A DNA stretch of 57,336 nt, filler included, from an uncultured Clostridia bacterium (GTDB lineage: Bacteria > Aerophobota > Aerophobia > Aerophobales > B3-G15), in NCBI GenBank assembly GCA_964482715.1. It is 8 parts of 8 records of this genome, joined end to end, with 100 filler letters (N's around TTAATTAATTAA, not from the genome) between each part and the next. Parts side by side here need not be neighbours in the genome. Positions count along the whole stretch, not along the records: positions 41,077 to 47,574 come from CAYZYX010000051.1; 7 more parts are not named here. One strand, written 5' to 3'. Below, one piece after another: positions 10,004 to 53,345 of this stretch; within the stretch, counting starts at the first letter, position 1, and every line of letters begins with the position of its first letter. A program made the position numbers and the translations under genes. Under the pieces are notes generated by a model. It ran no database searches. It was given only the letters and a program-made list of their open reading frames with translations, and had not been told where the DNA came from.

Positions 10004-10103
10004 NNNNNNNNNNNNNNNNNNNNNNNNNNNNNNNNNNNNNNNNNNNNTTAATTAATTAANNNNNNNNNNNNNNNNNNNNNNNNNNNNNNNNNNNNNNNNN
10101 NNN
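10004..10103. other. artificial contig linker
   Basis: N44-TTAATTAATTAA-N44, giving stops in all six frames. Confidence 0.98.
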
Positions 10104-18510: not shown

Positions 18511-18610
18511 NNNNNNNNNNNNNNNNNNNNNNNNNNNNNNNNNNNNNNNNNNNNTTAATTAATTAANNNNNNNNNNNNNNNNNNNNNNNNNNNNNNNNNN
18601 NNNNNNNNNN
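18511..18610. other. artificial contig linker
   Basis: N44-TTAATTAATTAA-N44. Confidence 0.98.
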
Positions 18611-26974: not shown

Positions 26975-27074
26975 NNNNNNNNNNNNNNNNNNNNNNNNNN
27001 NNNNNNNNNNNNNNNNNNTTAATTAATTAANNNNNNNNNNNNNNNNNNNNNNNNNNNNNNNNNNNNNNNNNNNN
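26975..27074. other. artificial contig linker
   Basis: N44-TTAATTAATTAA-N44. Confidence 0.98.
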
Positions 27075-28331: not shown

Positions 28332-28564
28332 CTGACATTGGGACAGTTTTTACCTATACCTTTCGCTTTAGACTCCCGGGTATCTCCCAGGAAGTGTCCC
28401 TCGCAAGAGGTTTATTTCACCTATTATTTTAGTGCAGCAGGTCTTTCCTTTTTGTGAGTGCAAAAGTTTCTACTATGGCGAAGCTTTCTGCTCGCCAAAA
28501 AAGCTTGCTTGCAAGGTATCTCCGGGAGCCTTTGTCTTCATGAAAAAAAGTGTCCCAATTTCAG
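28332..28564. mobile_element. MITE-like element, copy 1 (233 bp, longest)
   Basis: TIRs CTGACATTGGGACAGTTTT / AAAAGTGTCCCAATTTCAG (17/19); flanks GCCGCATT / GCCACATT (7/8 direct repeat); homologous to 42763-42932. Confidence 0.8.
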
Positions 28565-34253: not shown

Positions 34254-34353
34254 NNNNNNNNNNNNNNNNNNNNNNNNNNNNNNNNNNNNNNNNNNNNTTA
34301 ATTAATTAANNNNNNNNNNNNNNNNNNNNNNNNNNNNNNNNNNNNNNNNNNNN
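34254..34353. other. artificial contig linker
   Basis: N44-TTAATTAATTAA-N44. Confidence 0.98.
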
Positions 34354-40976: not shown

Positions 40977-41076
40977 NNNNNNNNNNNNNNNNNNNNNNNN
41001 NNNNNNNNNNNNNNNNNNNNTTAATTAATTAANNNNNNNNNNNNNNNNNNNNNNNNNNNNNNNNNNNNNNNNNNNN
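40977..41076. other. artificial contig linker
   Basis: N44-TTAATTAATTAA-N44. Confidence 0.98.
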
Positions 41077-41150
41077 CTGATCCTCTGGCAAAAGATTATA
41101 TTCAAAATATGCGTAAAATTACTAAAGTTCTGGGAAAATACCTGAATTGA
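41077..41150 (+). CDS. C-terminus of a metal ABC substrate-binding protein (contig-truncated)
   Basis: DPLAKDYIQNMRKIT; directly upstream of the metal ABC ATPase. Confidence 0.65.
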
Positions 41151-41151
41151 C

Positions 41152-41919
41152 ATGGAAGAAATAATCAGTTTAAAAGATATATGGGTGTACTTTGACAGCG
41201 TGGTTGTACTTCAGAATATCAACCTCACAGTCAGGGAAGGGGAATTCCTGGGGATAATTGGTCCTAACGGTGGCGGGAAAACTACACTTTTAAAAGTAAT
41301 TCTGGGTCTTATTAGGCCTGCCCAGGGCGAAGTTAAGGTATTCGGTAAAGATCCTGCTAAAGCAAGAGGTTTAATTGGATATGTACCTCAATATAGTTTT
41401 TTTGATCTTTCGTTTCCCATAAGTGTTTTTGATACAGTCTTAATGGGAAGATATCAGGGGATTTTAAAGAGATATTCCATAGAAGACAAAAAAGCTGTCA
41501 CCGATGCTCTCAAAGCTGTTGATATGTGGGAGTTAAAAGATGAACCAATAGGTCAGTTATCTGGAGGACAGCGTCAGAGAGTCTTTTTGGCCAGGGCAAT
41601 TGCCAGGCAGCCAAAACTGCTTCTACTGGATGAGCCAACCACGAGTATTGATCCTCAAATACAGGAGTCATTTTATAAAATGCTTCTTGAACTTAAGAAA
41701 AAAATGACCATTGTGATGGTAACTCATGATATAAGTGCTGTTTCTGTATATGTTGATAAAGTTGCCTGTCTTAATCGGGAATTATTTTATCATGGGTCTA
41801 AAAATAAGATTCTGGAAGAGCTTAAAAGGACGTATACCTGTCCTATAGATCTTATTACCCATGGGATTATCCACAAATTTCCGCAAGGACACGAAAAAGA
41901 TGGAAATTCTTCAGTTTGA
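41152..41919 (+). CDS. Zn/Mn ABC transporter ATP-binding protein (ZnuC-like)
   Basis: GPNGGGKT, GYVPQ, LSGGQRQR, LLLDEP, VTHD. Confidence 0.93.
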   Translation: MEEIISLKDIWVYFDSVVVLQNINLTVREGEFLGIIGPNGGGKTTLLKVILGLIRPAQGEVKVFGKDPAKARGLIGYVPQYSFFDLSFPISVFDTVLMGRYQGILKRYSIEDKKAVTDALKAVDMWELKDEPIGQLSGGQRQRVFLARAIARQPKLLLLDEPTTSIDPQIQESFYKMLLELKKKMTIVMVTHDISAVSVYVDKVACLNRELFYHGSKNKILEELKRTYTCPIDLITHGIIHKFPQGHEKDGNSSV

Positions 41920-42742
41920 ATTCATAAGAAACAGTCTCATTGCTGCAGTACTGGTAAATGTGGCCTGCGGTATTGTAGGAAGTTACATTGTCATAAAAAG
42001 GATAACTTTTATCAGCGGAGGGATTTCTCATACTGCCTTTGGTGGTGTGGGGCTCGGGCACTTACTTGGGATTAACCCTGTTTTGACTGCTCTCCCTTTT
42101 AGTGTTCTTGCTGGAATTTTAATCGGAATTCTTAGTAAAAAAACAAAGGTTAATGAAGATACAGCTATCGGGATGCTCTGGGTTGTCGGTATGGCTCTGG
42201 GTATAATATTTATCAATTTAACCGCGGGTTATGCTCCTGATCTTTTCGGTTATTTGTTTGGAAGTATTCTCACAGTTACACCTTTTGACCTTTACATGAT
42301 GTTATGTCTTAATCTGGTAATAATTCTCATGACTGTTTTATTTTTCCGGGAATTTTTATTTATCTGTTTTGATGAAGAATTTTCTACGGTGGTTGGCGTT
42401 CCTGCAACTATTTTATATTTTGCCCTTTTATGTTTAATTTCCCTTAGTGTAGTAATACTGATTAGAGTTGTGGGCGTTATTCTGGTCATCGGTCTTTTGA
42501 CCATTCCCGCTGTGATAAGCAGAGGATTTACCCATAATATAAAAAAGTTAATGCTGCTTTCCATAGTAATAGGAATTTCTCTGACTGTGGGAGGACTCTT
42601 CCTTTCCTATATGGTTGATTTAGCCTGTGGACCTACCATAATTCTCGTGCTGGGAGGTGCTTTCCTCGTGTCTTTACTTTTTAGACGTATTAAGGTCCTC
42701 AGGGAAGGTCACGTGCCTAAGAAAGTTAAAAAAAACGGTTAG
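41900..42742 (+). CDS. Zn/Mn ABC transporter permease (ZnuB-like)
   Basis: ISH.AFGG, EDTAIG, YLFGSIL, FDEEF, VVGVILV..LL.IP. Confidence 0.93.
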   Translation: MEILQFEFIRNSLIAAVLVNVACGIVGSYIVIKRITFISGGISHTAFGGVGLGHLLGINPVLTALPFSVLAGILIGILSKKTKVNEDTAIGMLWVVGMALGIIFINLTAGYAPDLFGYLFGSILTVTPFDLYMMLCLNLVIILMTVLFFREFLFICFDEEFSTVVGVPATILYFALLCLISLSVVILIRVVGVILVIGLLTIPAVISRGFTHNIKKLMLLSIVIGISLTVGGLFLSYMVDLACGPTIILVLGGAFLVSLLFRRIKVLREGHVPKKVKKNG

Positions 42743-42762
42743 TGCATTCGCTTTGATTATGC

Positions 42763-42932
42763 CTGAGTCTGGGACAGTTTATTTTGTTTTCACTTTTCAG
42801 GCTGCCGGGTATCTCGCAGGAAGTGTGCCTCGCAAGAGGTTTATCTCGCCTATCATTTTAGTGCAGCAGGCCTTTTCTTTTTATGGATGCAAAGGGAGTC
42901 TTTATCTTCATAAGAAAGTGCCCCAATTTCAG
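42763..42932. mobile_element. MITE-like element, copy 2 (170 bp)
   Basis: CTGAGTCTGGGACAGTTT...AAAGTGCCCCAATTTCAG; core CCGGGTATCTC.CAGGAAGTGT.CCTCGCAAGAGGTTTAT...TTTTAGTGCAGCAGG shared with copy 1. Confidence 0.8.
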
Positions 42933-43018
42933 GTTATCAAGATTGACCCTGTCTCCTATCCGTGTTATTAATTATATAAAGGGTTCTCCTAAAAATTTAC
43001 CTTATCGGGAGGAAAAAA

Positions 43019-43621
43019 ATGGAAAAATGGGAAGAAAAATTACCACCAAGAGCAAGAGAGAGACTGGCAAAGATTACAATAACTCCCGAAGATAGAGAGA
43101 GAATAAAGAACCTGGAAAAGTTAAAGACTTACCTTGCTGATTTTTATCGTGAAAAGTTAAGTCCGGATGATCTGGTGAATAAATTAAGGGAGCTTAAATC
43201 AAAAGAAAGAGATTTCCTGATTAAAGAGGCTCAGTTAAGGTTGATTAATTCCCTTAACTTGCAGATTTCTTCTCCCGATTTTAAAAAACGAGGAAAATGT
43301 ATTCTCATGCTGGAAAGACTGAAGCCTAAAGGCAAGGATCTTTTAATGAAAACAGAACTTAACTCCCTTGGCGTTATAATAAAAAGATACCTGGAGGAGA
43401 GGGAAAGGGTATATCAGCAAATAAAAAAGGAGGTGGAAAGTAATCCAGAATTAAGAATTAGACAGGTTAAAACTGAGGAGGGAGATGTAATAATTCATCT
43501 GTCAGTGGATGAAGCTGTAAGAAATACGTCTCAGTGGAAAGACTTTATTTACCAGCACGAGTCTCTCTGTCAATCAGAATTTGCAAAGTCAATAGAAAAG
43601 TTAAAGAAAATAATATCCTGA
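43019..43621 (+). CDS. hypothetical alpha-helical protein
   Basis: 200-aa ORF with GGAGG RBS, charged helical composition. Confidence 0.75.
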   Translation: MEKWEEKLPPRARERLAKITITPEDRERIKNLEKLKTYLADFYREKLSPDDLVNKLRELKSKERDFLIKEAQLRLINSLNLQISSPDFKKRGKCILMLERLKPKGKDLLMKTELNSLGVIIKRYLEERERVYQQIKKEVESNPELRIRQVKTEEGDVIIHLSVDEAVRNTSQWKDFIYQHESLCQSEFAKSIEKLKKIIS

Positions 43622-43685
43622 CTTTGAAATGGAAAAGGTAAAACTTTGATGGAGAAATCTCTCCTGGAGACTTTCATAATTTAAA

Positions 43686-44156
43686 TTAACTCTTAAATTT
43701 TTTTAATCTTTCTTCACGGCGAAGTTTGGCTTGTTCGTATTTCTGCTTTTCTTCCTCGGTTTCAGGAATAAGCTGAGGAACAGGGGCAGGCCTGCCTTCT
43801 TCATCAAGAGCTACCATGGTTAAATAAGCTGTTGCAACTGAAAGAATCTCTCCTGTCTTAATCTTTTCTGTTTGCACTTTAACCTCAACTTCCATACTGG
43901 TTCTTCCCACAAAGGTAATCACAGCTTTTAAAGTGACGACATCACCGATGTGAACAGGATTTTCAAAATTCAGGGAATCTATACAGGCTGTGACAATATT
44001 TCGCCGGGCATGACGGGATGCCGCTACATAAGCCACCTCATCTACAAGCTTCATTATAACTCCACCATGAACATTGCCATAGTGACTTGCATGGTGGGGC
44101 ATCATCACCTGAGAAAGAGTGGCAACTGAATCTTTTACTCTTTTTCCCTCCTTCAT
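43686..44156 (-). CDS. acyl-CoA thioesterase (hotdog fold)
   Basis: P.H...YG.VHGG.IMKL.DE.A, VTA..D...F, VGRTSMEV, VALD..G.P..VP. Confidence 0.93.
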   Translation of the reverse strand: MKEGKRVKDSVATLSQVMMPHHASHYGNVHGGVIMKLVDEVAYVAASRHARRNIVTACIDSLNFENPVHIGDVVTLKAVITFVGRTSMEVEVKVQTEKIKTGEILSVATAYLTMVALDEEGRPAPVPQLIPETEEEKQKYEQAKLRREERLKKFKS

Positions 44157-44403
44157 ACAACTTCCCTTTTAAGTCTAAATTTTCTGATTTATTTTTACTT
44201 TTACCAGAGCTATTCACCAGTTAAGGGCTGTTTTATCTCTAATAGTCTGGTATCAGTTATTTTTTAAAATAAAGTCCGGGTGTTCATGACCATATTACTT
44301 TCCATTTCATCAAATTTTATACCTTATATTCCTCTCCCTTATAATCTTGTTCATCCATTACTGCTGACTTAAAACTTTTTTGACCTCTCGGAAAAGATGG
44401 TGT

Positions 44404-44734
44404 TTAAATTCTAACAGATTTTATCTCTTTGTAAAGCTCTTTCCGTAATTTTTGACCAGATAATTGTAAACCTGACAGCCCAATCTGGTGGAAAAAATAA
44501 ATCTTTTCTTCTCAATAACGTATCTTCGAGCAAATAATTTCTGTATAATGGTAGCCTAAGTTGAAGGTCTGCCTGGGTAGGGGGGTAACCCTCTGGCAGA
44601 AAAGCCGTCTTTTTCTTTTGTTTGAACTTTTTCTCTTGAGAGTGTTTTGAAACTTTTCTTTTTCTTTCAATTTCTTGATGAGTTAGATCCTGTCCACATA
44701 TCTGGCATAAATTCTCGTAAATAACCGGTATCAT
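44404..44734 (-). pseudogene. rgy: reverse gyrase remnant (N-terminus fused to C-terminal segments)
   Basis: MIPVIYENLCQICGQDL...EIE; TQADL; then in other frames GRPST*ATIIQKLFARRYVIEK....STRLG.QVY.YL...YGK and ELYKEIKSVRI*. Confidence 0.85.
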
Positions 44735-44736
44735 TG

Positions 44737-44836
44737 NNNNNNNNNNNNNNNNNNNNNNNNNNNNNNNNNNNNNNNNNNNNNNNNNNNNNNNNNNNNNNNN
44801 NNNNNNNNNNNNNNNNNNNNNNNNNNNNNNNNNNNN
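44737..44836. other. scaffold gap (100 N, no stop linker)
   Basis: Plain N run, distinct from the contig linkers. Confidence 0.95.
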
Positions 44837-44922
44837 ACTTTGTTTTTAACTTTCCTTCTTTAAATAACTTAATGCAAACAACAATTATTATAACATATTC
44901 ACCCATGTCAAATCTTCAAGAG

Positions 44923-45014
44923 CTGAAGTTAGGATAGTTTTACTTATATCTTCTCCCCCAGGCTCCCGGGGGCCTTATCCTCATGAGAAAATATAAAAAC
45001 TGTCGCAACTTCAG
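44923..45014. mobile_element. MITE-like element, copy 4 (92 bp)
   Basis: CTGAAGTTAGGATAGTTTT / AAAACTGTCGCAACTTCAG ends; perfect 8-bp flanking direct repeat TTCAAGAG (44915-44922, 45015-45022). Confidence 0.75.
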
Positions 45015-45152
45015 TTCAAGAGCTGAAAATTAAGGGTATCAGGATCATTAATTTTACTTTTTATCCTACTTTGTATATGATAAAAAGGTCACATATACGA
45101 GTTTTTGTCATAAATTTTAATTTTCACTACCTCTAAAAATAAGGGTTTATCT

Positions 45153-46319
45153 ATGAAAAGCAGCACATACCTGAAAGGTATCAGCATAAATATACTCCTG
45201 TTAGGTATTGTCAGTTTTCTGAATGATTTAAGCAGCGAGATGATAATGCCGATTCTGCCCATGTTTATAACAGCTCTGGGTGGTACCGGTCTTGTTGTTG
45301 GACTGATTGGTGGATTGAGGGATAGCCTTTCAAGTATTCTAAAGATTTTCGCTGGCTACTGGTCTGATAGAACAGGAAGAAGAAAGGTATTTGTATCTTC
45401 TGGTTACCTAACCTCTTCAGTATTTAAATTATTCCTGGCTTTTTCCAGAACATGGGAGCATATCTTAGTTTTTGCCAGTCTGGAGAGGGTAGGCAAAGGA
45501 TTAAGAACTGCTTCAAGAGATGCTATTATTGCCGATTCCATGCCAGAAGAAAAAGGCAGGGGTTTTGGAATTCATAGAGCCTTAGATACTTCCGGGGCAA
45601 TTTTGGGTTCGGTTGTTGTTTTTCTTTTATTCTGGTTTTTAAATTTTGATTTAAAGACAATCATATTCATCGCTGCAGCTGTTGCATTTACTTCTTTGAT
45701 CCCTCTGTATTTTGTGAAAGAAGAGAGGAGAGAACCACAAGATATAACTCTAAAAATAGGCTTGAGTAATCTTCCTTCATCCCTAAAATTGTTCATTTTG
45801 GTTTCCGGTATATTCTCTCTGGCAAATTTTAGCTATATGTTTTTTATCCTCAGGGCTCAAGAATTTTTTGCAGGTAAATTATCCCTTGGTGTACCAATTC
45901 TTCTATACGTTCTTTTTAACATATTTTACGCTATTTTTGCCATTCCTTTCGGTAGCCTTTCCGACAAAATAGGGAGGAAAAAAGTTATTGTTTTTGGTTA
46001 TTTATTATTTTCCTTAACCTCTCTTGGATTTGCATTTTTCAGCTCATTACAAGCTTTTGTGGTTTTATTTGCTCTTTATGGCATAACTCATGCAATAATA
46101 GATGGCAATCAAAGAGCTTTTGTTGCCGATTTGTCCTCAGAGAAGTTGAGGGCTACAGCTCTGGGAACATTTCATACCACAGTTAGCTTAGCGGCTCTAC
46201 CAGCTGGTTTAATCGCTGGCATCTTATGGCAAATTAATCCAAGTATAACCTTTATATACGGGGCTGCGGTTAGTTTCATCTCGGTCAGTCTATTCATTGT
46301 TAAATTTATTTTAAAATAA
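45153..46319 (+). CDS. MFS transporter
   Basis: VSFLNDLSSEMI.P, G.WSDR.GRRK, ERVGKGLRT..RDA.I, G.LSDKIGRK. Confidence 0.93.
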   Translation: MKSSTYLKGISINILLLGIVSFLNDLSSEMIMPILPMFITALGGTGLVVGLIGGLRDSLSSILKIFAGYWSDRTGRRKVFVSSGYLTSSVFKLFLAFSRTWEHILVFASLERVGKGLRTASRDAIIADSMPEEKGRGFGIHRALDTSGAILGSVVVFLLFWFLNFDLKTIIFIAAAVAFTSLIPLYFVKEERREPQDITLKIGLSNLPSSLKLFILVSGIFSLANFSYMFFILRAQEFFAGKLSLGVPILLYVLFNIFYAIFAIPFGSLSDKIGRKKVIVFGYLLFSLTSLGFAFFSSLQAFVVLFALYGITHAIIDGNQRAFVADLSSEKLRATALGTFHTTVSLAALPAGLIAGILWQINPSITFIYGAAVSFISVSLFIVKFILK

Positions 46320-46362
46320 AATTATGTAGCCTGACATTGAAAGTAGCGGTGGAGGTGAGAAA

Positions 46363-46850
46363 ATGGGCAGATGTTTAATCTGGAAAGTTACACTTTTTAT
46401 AGTGGCAATTCTCCTTGTCTCCGGGTGTGTCCAACATAGCAGATTATTAGAAAAACATGAAGAGCAGAGAAATTCCCCGGGTAAACCCGGCTTTCTTCCC
46501 TCTCTCCAAACCTGTACCGAAAAAATACATGGAGTATAGAAATTTTCCAGGAGCAGAAAGGTTCGGTTTTGTCTGTATGGATCTTCTTGCTATACAAGAT
46601 TTAAACCTGGGTTGGGTTAGACCATATCCCGGCCCTTTCATATGGGGAAAAATTGAACCAGCAAAAGGAAAATACGATTTTAGCCAGGTTGATGAAGTGG
46701 TTAGAAAAGCACAGGCAATGAACCTTACATCCTTGCAATCATCTGGCCATATGCAAAATGGGATCAGGAAAAGTGGGGAAAGAATTTGTTAAAACCTGGT
46801 AGAAAGATATGACGGAGATAGGATAGATGATATGCCTGGATTAAAAAAAA
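46363..46850 (+). pseudogene. decayed secreted/lipoprotein clan GH-A glycoside hydrolase-like gene
   Basis: GGAGGTGA RBS; LLVSGCV lipobox-like; WVRP.PGPFIWG.IEP.KG.YDFS..D; IWPYA.WDQ and LVERYDGD.IDDMPGL in shifted frames; truncated. Confidence 0.65.
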
Positions 46851-46925
46851 TGTTCAGTCCAAGCATAACTACTGTTTTAACATTCATTAAATTTAATGAA
46901 CTATTTTGATTTTCACTACCCTTTC

Positions 46926-47285
46926 TCAGTCAAACACATCACACAGAGGACACCGCCAATCTTTCCCTTCTGGACGTTGAGGATGCTGGTTATTATCTAA
47001 CCTTTCCGATCCACCAAAATCGTGATAATTTTTACATTCCTTCTCAAAAGCATCCTTAGGAGATGTTGCATAACTAAAGCTAAAATACTCATACTTATCT
47101 GTTTTTCCAGCCCAATATTTTAATTGGCTATTCAAATCATCATCAGAGCGTCCCACATAACTCACAGCAAAAGAAATTTTAACCATTTTCCCTAAAGCAT
47201 AATTCCCGGGAGATTTCCTTGTAACAACCTCATCAATTTTTTCAGCTGTGAGTTTATAAGGCCCCTTCATATTCAACCATGTCAT
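46926..47285 (-). CDS. hypothetical protein, GIY-YIG-like
   Basis: PGNYALG...YVGRS..DL...L, AF.KEC..YH, N..HP, C-terminal CPLC. Confidence 0.6.
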   Translation of the reverse strand: MTWLNMKGPYKLTAEKIDEVVTRKSPGNYALGKMVKISFAVSYVGRSDDDLNSQLKYWAGKTDKYEYFSFSYATSPKDAFEKECKNYHDFGGSERLDNNQHPQRPEGKDWRCPLCDVFD

Positions 47286-47574
47286 CTTATTGCCTCCATT
47301 TATGTGAACTTTATCACCAGTTGTTTTCCTTTGAGCAGAGCAAAAATAAAAAATTCCTTCATCTTTTAAACCAGAAAGAGCACTCGGAATAGCGAGATAA
47401 GAATATCAGTTTGAAAACAAACTGTCAAATTGTTTATGCGTTTGGCTATAATGGTGAGGAATTTTAGAAACACACAGGGAAATTGCCGTTTTTAGTAAAT
47501 TTATTCGTTTTTTAGAGACCTTGATTCTGAAATTAACTTTAAACGTTTATCTTTTTGTAATCTAACATTTGAAA

Positions 47575-47674
47575 NNNNNNNNNNNNNNNNNNNNNNNNNN
47601 NNNNNNNNNNNNNNNNNNTTAATTAATTAANNNNNNNNNNNNNNNNNNNNNNNNNNNNNNNNNNNNNNNNNNNN
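47575..47674. other. artificial contig linker
   Basis: N44-TTAATTAATTAA-N44. Confidence 0.98.
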
Positions 47675-53245: not shown

Positions 53246-53345
53246 NNNNNNNNNNNNNNNNNNNNNNNNNNNNNNNNNNNNNNNNNNNNTTAATTAATTA
53301 ANNNNNNNNNNNNNNNNNNNNNNNNNNNNNNNNNNNNNNNNNNNN
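53246..53345. other. artificial contig linker
   Basis: N44-TTAATTAATTAA-N44. Confidence 0.98.

Follow-up and report, generated by a model that had tools for sequence, protein, structure and literature searches.

Remains of a reverse gyrase gene and two KaiC-related neighbours, very probably decayed in place, in an uncultured Aerophobetes bacterium

The gene for reverse gyrase (rgy) is widely taken as the mark of an organism that lives at very high temperature. What is to be made of a stretch of a few hundred bases in which pieces of both ends of this enzyme can be recognised, but no gene? Was a working gene lost on the spot, did broken pieces come in from elsewhere, or is the assembly at fault? 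The stretch in question lies on the minus strand of the window, by which we mean the whole DNA analysed here, 57,336 bases in eight draft contigs of 10.0 to 4.0 kb with about 39% G+C. The contigs are joined by linkers of the form N44-TTAATTAATTAA-N44 at 10004-10103, 18511-18610, 26975-27074, 34254-34353, 40977-41076, 47575-47674 and 53246-53345. The window is a pseudomolecule of chained contigs, so adjacency across the linkers means nothing; the remnant lies within the piece 41077-47574.

An earlier note, made from the sequence itself, had picked out four peptide strings at 44404-44734 and read them as a collapsed reverse gyrase. All four are found where it placed them, on the minus strand and in three frames. 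MIPVIYENLCQICGQDLTHQEIE begins at 44734 and LPEGYPPTQADL occupies 44599-44564, both in frame 0; GRPST*ATIIQ...NYGK runs in the second frame from 44573 to 44439, with a TAG at 44556-44558; and ELYKEIKSVRI* follows in the third frame at 44439-44404. The note had taken LPEGYPPTQADL and GRPST as separate strings. Both are present, but they overlap by 10 nt in two frames, and the G-R of 'GRPST' comes from the QAD codons, which the second frame reads out of register at the joint of a 37-nt deletion.

Do these strings come from reverse gyrase, or from a related topoisomerase? The first 25 residues of the open frame match aa 1-25 of the Archaeoglobus fulgidus reverse gyrase (1gl9) with E 0.0028, and this is the sole match below E 0.8. 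The GRPST piece, searched with X in place of the TAG, matches aa 971-1016 of the same protein with E 8e-9, while its matches to TopA are weaker (E 0.0032 for Thermotoga maritima and 0.26 for Escherichia coli); it also passes the Pfam model Topoisom_bac with 37.1 bits (cut-off 35.1). Both termini of the enzyme are represented, as the earlier note had expected, and the choice between reverse gyrase and TopA falls the way it had proposed. The matches go beyond chance, and the sequence at 44404-44734 descends from rgy, not from TopA or Topo III.

Is there an intact counterpart for comparison? The phylum was covered by 30 species genomes reached through one of them (G002), and rgy scored above the TIGR01054 cut-off in two (G020 and G021). 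The G021 protein is the C-terminal 550 residues of a gene cut by a contig end. It matches the three C-terminal pieces in the window, namely LPEGYPFTQADL, a stretch with 69% identity over 45 residues from GRPSTY, and KKALEELYKEIKSV. A metagenome scan with this protein gave 35 loci, of which L110 (100%) and L111 (99%) represent the G021 species. These two hold the whole locus: an MFS gene on the opposite strand, an rgy of 1063 aa that starts MVPVIYQNLCSICGKDLTYREIEKK, and open reading frames of 212 and 295 aa. The NCBIfam models identify the three L110 genes as rgy (TIGR01054, 1093 bits, cut-off 471.7), near_KaiC_dom (the 212-aa gene; TIGR03879, 109.5 bits, cut-off 65.1) and thermo_KaiC_2 (the 295-aa gene; TIGR03878, 444.1 bits, cut-off 232.2). 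The two KaiC-related families are associated with thermophiles. Pfam agrees on these genes (DEAD, Toprim, Topoisom_bac, KaiC) and places the DEAD, ResIII and Toprim domains of the L110 reverse gyrase at aa 56-667. The earlier note had suggested looking in sister genomes for an intact rgy in the same place, and L110, L111 and G021 provide it.

The comparison also bears out the Archaeoglobus type that the note had recognised. The intact orthologue scores 1214.5 bits against A. fulgidus 1gl9 and 669.9 bits against T. maritima 4ddt, and the A. fulgidus enzyme (PDB 1gku/1gl9, TIGR01054) is the closest solved relative of the remnant and of the orthologue alike. Aa 1-1061 of the L110 protein align with aa 1-1053 of the A. 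fulgidus protein, and with 1063 and 1054 aa the two are of the same short class.

The same searches brought up other rgy-like sequences. G020 (L089, G020:C39:6048-9596) carries a full-length reverse gyrase of 1198 aa whose identity with the G021/L110 type is just 31%. Two unrelated lineages of rgy are thus present in the phylum, as would be expected if they were acquired separately or if a bin is contaminated. Two weak matches of the rgy model in G021, on C177 and C13, were dropped as further fossils, as they are the C-terminus of another topoisomerase I and a Toprim protein. A protein search with the G021 reverse gyrase found no other rgy-like stretch in the 57-kb window.

How much of the intact gene is left? 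DNA and protein alignments resolve the minus strand of 44404-44734 into five collinear rgy pieces, which correspond to aa 1-25, 734-749, 957-969, 981-1022 and 1053 to the stop in the numbering of the 1063-aa orthologue. Block A (44662-44734) starts with the ATG at 44734 and holds codons 1-25 with the first CxxC of the N-terminal zinc finger. It is identical to L110 2663-2736 at 48 of 73 nt, and 17 of its 25 differences fall on third codon positions. An A-rich filler of 23 nt (44639-44661) then marks an in-frame loss of 2103 nt, that is, of the helicase-like and Toprim parts of rgy. Block B (44592-44638) keeps the frame of block A and holds codons 734-749 (QEKKFKQKKKTAFLPE; 77% identity over 47 nt with L110 4862-4908, E 1e-5). 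Block C (44564-44601) holds codons 957-969, the string LPEGYPPTQADL (87% over 38 nt with L110 5532-5569). Blocks B and C overlap by 10 nt (TTCTGCCAGA), a microhomology at a 633-nt in-frame deletion whose two ancestral sites are alike at 8 of 10 positions in L110. Block D (44444-44567) overlaps block C by 4 nt (CCTT) and is shifted in frame by the 37-nt deletion; it holds codons 981-1022 (PST*ATIIQKLFARRYVIEKKRFIFSTRLGCQVYNYLVKNYG; 124 nt, 77% with L110 5603-5726, E 4e-25), and the TAG at 44556-44558 stands for the Tyr of GRPSTY. Block E (44404-44439), preceded by an 88-nt deletion, holds codons 1053-1063 in the third frame together with the original stop TAA at 44404-44406 (36 nt, 86% with L110 5819-5854). 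Blocks A-C share one frame because the first two losses are multiples of three, and the pieces are spread over three reading frames because the losses of 37 and 88 nt shift the frame. The joints B/C and C/D look as deletion between short repeats would leave them.

The decay does not end with rgy. The limits 44404-44734 given in the earlier note are right for the rgy part, but the internal piece QEKKFKQKKKTAFLPE and the stretch down to 44220 had been overlooked. The whole decayed block spans 44220-44734 on the minus strand and runs past rgy into the remains of the two downstream genes. After a loss of 601 nt, block F (44335-44392, minus strand) holds the last codons of near_KaiC_dom (..REVKKVLSQQ*) and the first 8 codons of thermo_KaiC_2 (MDEQDYKG), with 76% identity to L110 6468-6524 (E 3e-6). 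After a further loss of 736 nt, block H (44220-44292, minus strand) holds thermo_KaiC_2 codons 269-292 (NTRTLF*KITDTRLLEIKQPLT), which a TAA at 44264-44266 interrupts in frame; it is 74% identical to L110 7305-7376 (E 1e-8), and 68% at the protein level (E 0.001). Against G021 a weak extra block, 44323-44289, reaches no better than E 0.07. The intact locus can be followed down to 44220, about 10 nt short of the KaiC stop, and homology ends there. Where L110 has intact TIGR03878 and TIGR03879 genes, the window retains KaiC codons 1-8 and 269-292 and the last codons of the partner, end fragments with a TAA that give no full-length match to either family.

In sum, seven window blocks follow the L110 locus in conserved order and orientation in the DNA alignment, and the net losses between them are 2103, 633, 37 and 88 nt inside rgy and 601 and 736 nt downstream. 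Loss through several deletions had been proposed from the reading of the sequence, and the count is now four within rgy and two beyond it. The 4714 nt (about 4.7 kb) of L110 correspond to 515 nt in the window; for rgy alone, 3192 nt have become 331 nt, and some 107 of its 1063 codons (about 10%) are left. In about 435 nt of aligned blocks there are only two in-frame stops, and the lesions of the rgy remnant are two frameshifting deletions and the TAG at the Tyr of GRPSTY.

Could this still be a gene for something like reverse gyrase? Codons 26-733 are absent from the window, and with them the helicase-like (SF2, DEAD/ResIII) domain that is fused N-terminally in reverse gyrase (TIGR01054). No complete Toprim plus topoisomerase IA domain stands in one open frame, the pieces being scattered over three frames with a TAG, and the catalytic tyrosine would presumably have lain within the deleted region 750-956. 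No enzyme can be made, because the helicase-like part, the Toprim part and most of the topoisomerase domain are gone. Unlike the A. fulgidus gene, which has all of these, the window copy with its two frameshifts and stop is a relic. A relative has the orthologue intact at the corresponding locus, and the decayed block here bears six deletions and two in-frame stops, besides at least two frameshifts within rgy; by the usual definition it is a pseudogene.

Where did the pieces stand when they were genes? To the left of the remnant, the MFS transporter gene (45153-46319, plus strand; Pfam MFS_1) is transcribed divergently from it and serves as a conserved anchor. It is 75% identical to L110 1225-2331 over 1107 nt, and 80.3% at the amino acid level over 386 codons, in the same divergent orientation. 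We hold it very probable that 44220-44734 on the minus strand is the wreck, in situ, of a block of reverse gyrase, near_KaiC_dom and thermo_KaiC_2 that formerly stood next to this MFS gene. Homology, collinearity, synteny on one side, reproducibility across sequencing runs and allelic variation are matters of direct observation.

Some points count against this account. The first is the right-hand flank, where an acyl-CoA thioesterase (4HBT) gene (43686-44156, minus strand) has no synteny with the intact locus. It is 73-75% identical in amino acids to its four closest relatives, which share nothing else with the locus and have no rgy in any of the four. No right-flank synteny was found in L111, over 10 kb downstream of the intact block, or in G021:C29; in L111 the KaiC gene is followed by a SHOCT protein, a P-type ATPase and others, with no thioesterase next to it. 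The non-syntenic flank implies further loss or rearrangement there, which decay in place leaves unexplained. The second point is G004, which has the MFS gene (78%) and no adjacent rgy or KaiC trace better than E 0.05; it was considered as an 'empty site' for the rgy block and dropped. The third is that a close sister is absent among the 30 phylum genomes, where accC identities of 74-82% to five genomes leave the ranking unsettled. With the window DNA, no remnant was detectable in the other 29 of the 30 genomes.

Might the collapse be a product of assembly or scaffolding instead, with a full-length rgy squeezed by misassembly or partly hidden inside a gap? The assembly is indeed a draft in many pieces, with contigs of 4-10 kb strung together by linkers, and a 100-N scaffold gap (44737-44836) begins only 2 nt from the start codon at 44734. 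This gap, however, lies upstream of the ATG, outside the rgy gene. The segment 43000-44736 is present in 19 public runs from 18 studies of hydrothermal vent, marine sediment and sediment metagenomes, and Logan contigs of four runs (X1-X4; four samples and four studies, X1 possibly being the source) were compared with the whole contig. In all four, a single, separately assembled contig covers the remnant, with 44284-44736 unbroken, and crosses the N gap, which is filled by 12 (X1), 1 (X2), 1 (X3) and 3 (X4) nt. The gap therefore hides no gene. Three further copies from other assemblies (P0002-P0004) have the same or a more reduced structure. The earlier note had named misassembly among the results that would refute it; the collapsed structure is seen again in contigs of four runs, and we give an artefact next to no chance.

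Some other features of the contigs came to light in the same comparison. A 76-nt repeat, 91% identical between 42805-42880 and 28376-28451 on two different window contigs, is a place where contigs break in all four runs and where summed depth is 3-6 times that of neighbouring bins; it is neither a tRNA nor an Rfam family and may be a short dispersed repeat element. The tRNA and Rfam scans of the remnant's contig gave no match. At 47014-47078, within the ORF 46926-47285 (minus strand), summed depth is raised and contigs break in X1-X3; nothing else in the window repeats this stretch, and the ORF, of 119 aa, matches no Pfam family. A 111-aa frame at 46457-46792 shows a weak match to the N-terminal part of Glyco_hydro_42 (aa 59-91 only; E 1e-4) and may be another truncated gene on the remnant's contig. 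In run X4 the letters CT are inserted at 46499, and a replacement of 909 letters lies near 46849.

Does anything hold the remnant in its present shape? An open frame of 107 aa (44411-44734, minus strand) carries blocks A-C in the ancestral frame and the remainder out of frame. It might be asked whether this is a newborn small protein, made from the old rgy promoter, or whether the remnant serves as regulatory DNA for the thioesterase or MFS gene. It is true that the 107-aa frame runs uninterrupted from the ancestral ATG, and that the deletions of 2103 and 633 nt left it in frame. Variation among the runs tells in the same direction at first sight. The homopolymer at 44574-44579, G6 or, as read along the gene, C6, is 6, 7 or 9 long between runs and assemblies, with +G in X4 and +GGG in X3, and X4 also has a 49-nt deletion (44608-44656); the indels of X3 (+3) and of X4 (-49, +1) both leave the frame open. 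Substitutions among runs occur at 44444 and 44572, and no run-to-run difference is listed at the TAG 44556-44558 in X1-X4. That the first two deletions and these indels preserve the frame could hint at constraint and so counts against neutral decay, but we rate it as coincidence, to be expected by chance about 1 time in 9 for each pair.

A search with the 107-aa frame found only three related proteins among 5.8 billion, all from the remnant locus itself. One of them (P0002, ENA-derived) is extended upstream to 135 aa, since the closed gap fuses a start at 44906 to the frame, and this lengthening could be taken as favouring a new protein. Another (P0003) needs 7 C, and its +1 frameshift breaks the frame after about 58 codons; in the third (P0004) a larger deletion has removed blocks A-C, the whole N-terminal half. 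The product of the frame would be half a zinc finger, a lysine-rich stretch and a tail that is topoisomerase sequence read out of frame, and it matches no Pfam family. We judge the 107-aa frame to be accidental, and a new protein or regulatory role for the remnant to be most unlikely. The homopolymer varies, one allele lacks 49 nt, another has a +1 frameshift and yet another a larger deletion; the remnant is thus without visible constraint and still shrinking in some populations.

When did the block cease to work? Freely drifting sequence comes to differ at similar rates at all three codon positions. Against L110, the blocks differ at 24/139 first, 11/139 second and 60/135 third positions, while the functional MFS gene differs at 17.1, 11.1 and 51.3%, respectively. 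Because the differences lie mainly at third positions, as in the MFS gene, inactivation would have come late in the divergence of the two lineages, which is a relative statement and gives no date. A choice of the best-kept parts cannot explain the codon pattern, because the blocks cover about 85% of the remnant. The earlier note had called the loss recent, and in this relative sense the word is apt: the differences by codon position are like those of a functional gene, and alleles decayed further coexist in other assemblies.

Could the pieces never have been a working gene in the window lineage, having arrived already degraded by transfer or recombination from a G021-like neighbour? The block is patchy, with this type of rgy in one of the 30 genomes and thermo_KaiC_2 in one of the 30, and the pieces are 77-87% identical in DNA to G021, when some other shared genes, which may be paralogues, reach 53-62% in amino acids. 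The MFS gene, however, with 80% identity to L110 and 78% to the rgy-less G004, behaves as a vertically inherited gene in the same place and orientation, and accC, with 78% identity to that of G021, is about as close as the remnant. Stepwise deletion in place, too, would leave what is seen here, seven collinear blocks that keep the original start and stop. We regard an arrival in pieces as very improbable and prefer the decay of a resident block.

The course of this decay can be sketched as follows. An intact block of three genes would have adjoined the MFS gene, as it still does in the related Aerophobetes lineage, and would have stayed functional in the window lineage for most of its divergence from that of G021. 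Six or more deletions, from 37 to about 2100 nt in size and at least two of them with short identity at the joint, would then have cut about 4.7 kb to 515 bp, and what is left would now be decaying neutrally through deletion bias. The loss may have been tolerated because reverse gyrase would be dispensable at moderately high temperature. Mira, Ochman and Moran reportedly described in 2001 a deletional bias in the decay of bacterial pseudogenes. The picture here is the same: the gene goes through numerous deletions, from tens of bases to thousands in size and in part at short repeats, and not by point mutation alone. The locus offers a well-resolved example, as the intact orthologous locus lets each joint be mapped.

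Is it by chance that the two KaiC-related genes went down together with rgy? The order rgy, near_KaiC_dom, thermo_KaiC_2 is found in L110 (2663-7389) and L111 (172-4895), and the reversed order, with KaiC first and rgy last, in L114 (2775-7130), L117 (4820-9162) and L122 (1-4550). The last three are the cases of trio adjacency among the 33 other rgy loci (L112-L144, many with short flanks); they are unrelated metagenome contigs with rgy 52-56% identical. The two gene orders, the same distribution over one of the 30 genomes and the joint decay in the window suggest a functional module. It is conceivable, though rather doubtful, that the three genes form one heat-adaptation module that is transferred, kept and lost together, with a KaiC ATPase acting with or on reverse gyrase. 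The excerpts returned by a literature search on both terms gave no link between KaiC genes and reverse gyrase. The recurrent neighbourhood may be taken as a lead toward such a link, obtained as a by-product of this work.

Where did the block come from, and does its loss tell of a change of temperature? Reverse gyrase of the A. fulgidus type occurs in one of the 30 phylum genomes, and thermo_KaiC_2 in the same genome; this patchiness, together with the close match to the A. fulgidus enzyme, would be consistent with a block transferred from an archaeal-type source. The earlier note had offered a hot-adapted ancestor as one possible history. As a crude temperature proxy, the share of IVYWREL residues in long ORFs was converted by a linear formula that Zeldovich et al. 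reportedly published in 2007. The fraction is 0.427 over 36 window ORFs, or about 65 C, a value from a small sample with crude ORF calling and without an error model; on equally small and crude samples G021 and G020 both come out at 64 C, G002 at 54 C and G003 at 51 C. All that can be read from this is that the window organism appears no cooler than its relative with rgy. Neither a hot-adapted ancestor nor a move away from heat need be assumed, because by this crude proxy the organism seems as thermophilic as that relative; of the history proposed at first, the loss of rgy at this locus is supported and the hot ancestor is not needed. The loss would fit the view that reverse gyrase is optional below hyperthermophilic temperatures.

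Is such a loss without precedent? In Thermus thermophilus, rgy is a pseudogene in strain HB27 and an intact gene on the megaplasmid of HB8, and the decay in HB27 was read as the ongoing elimination of an acquired hyperthermophile marker (PMC1274311, PMC2588523). The window resembles this pair in being a bacterial lineage with a decayed rgy whose relative has the gene intact at the corresponding place. Unlike Thermus, it shows decay that has gone far further, with 10% of the codons left, at least four internal deletions and two neighbour genes included; the comparison here is between species (about 80% in amino acids), it concerns an uncultured Aerophobetes, and alleles at several stages of decay are found across assemblies. 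For Aerophobetes or Aerophobota together with reverse gyrase, the literature excerpts seen contain no substantive link, the Aerophobetes passage of PMC7203096 not being about rgy. A decayed rgy beside an intact relative is thus already known from Thermus, and the present locus is a clear but not unprecedented case of the loss of a heat marker.

What does it mean for the phylum and for the use of the marker? At this locus of an uncultured phylum a reverse gyrase gene can be watched in the course of its loss: each deletion joint is mapped against an intact orthologue, and sediment samples differ in how far their alleles have decayed. Presence and loss of rgy serve to infer habitat switching in archaeal lineages, as excerpts of that literature indicate, and its presence or absence in metagenome-assembled genomes is used for habitat shifts in the same way. 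The locus calls for caution in such uses, as the loss of the gene need not mean a move to the cold.
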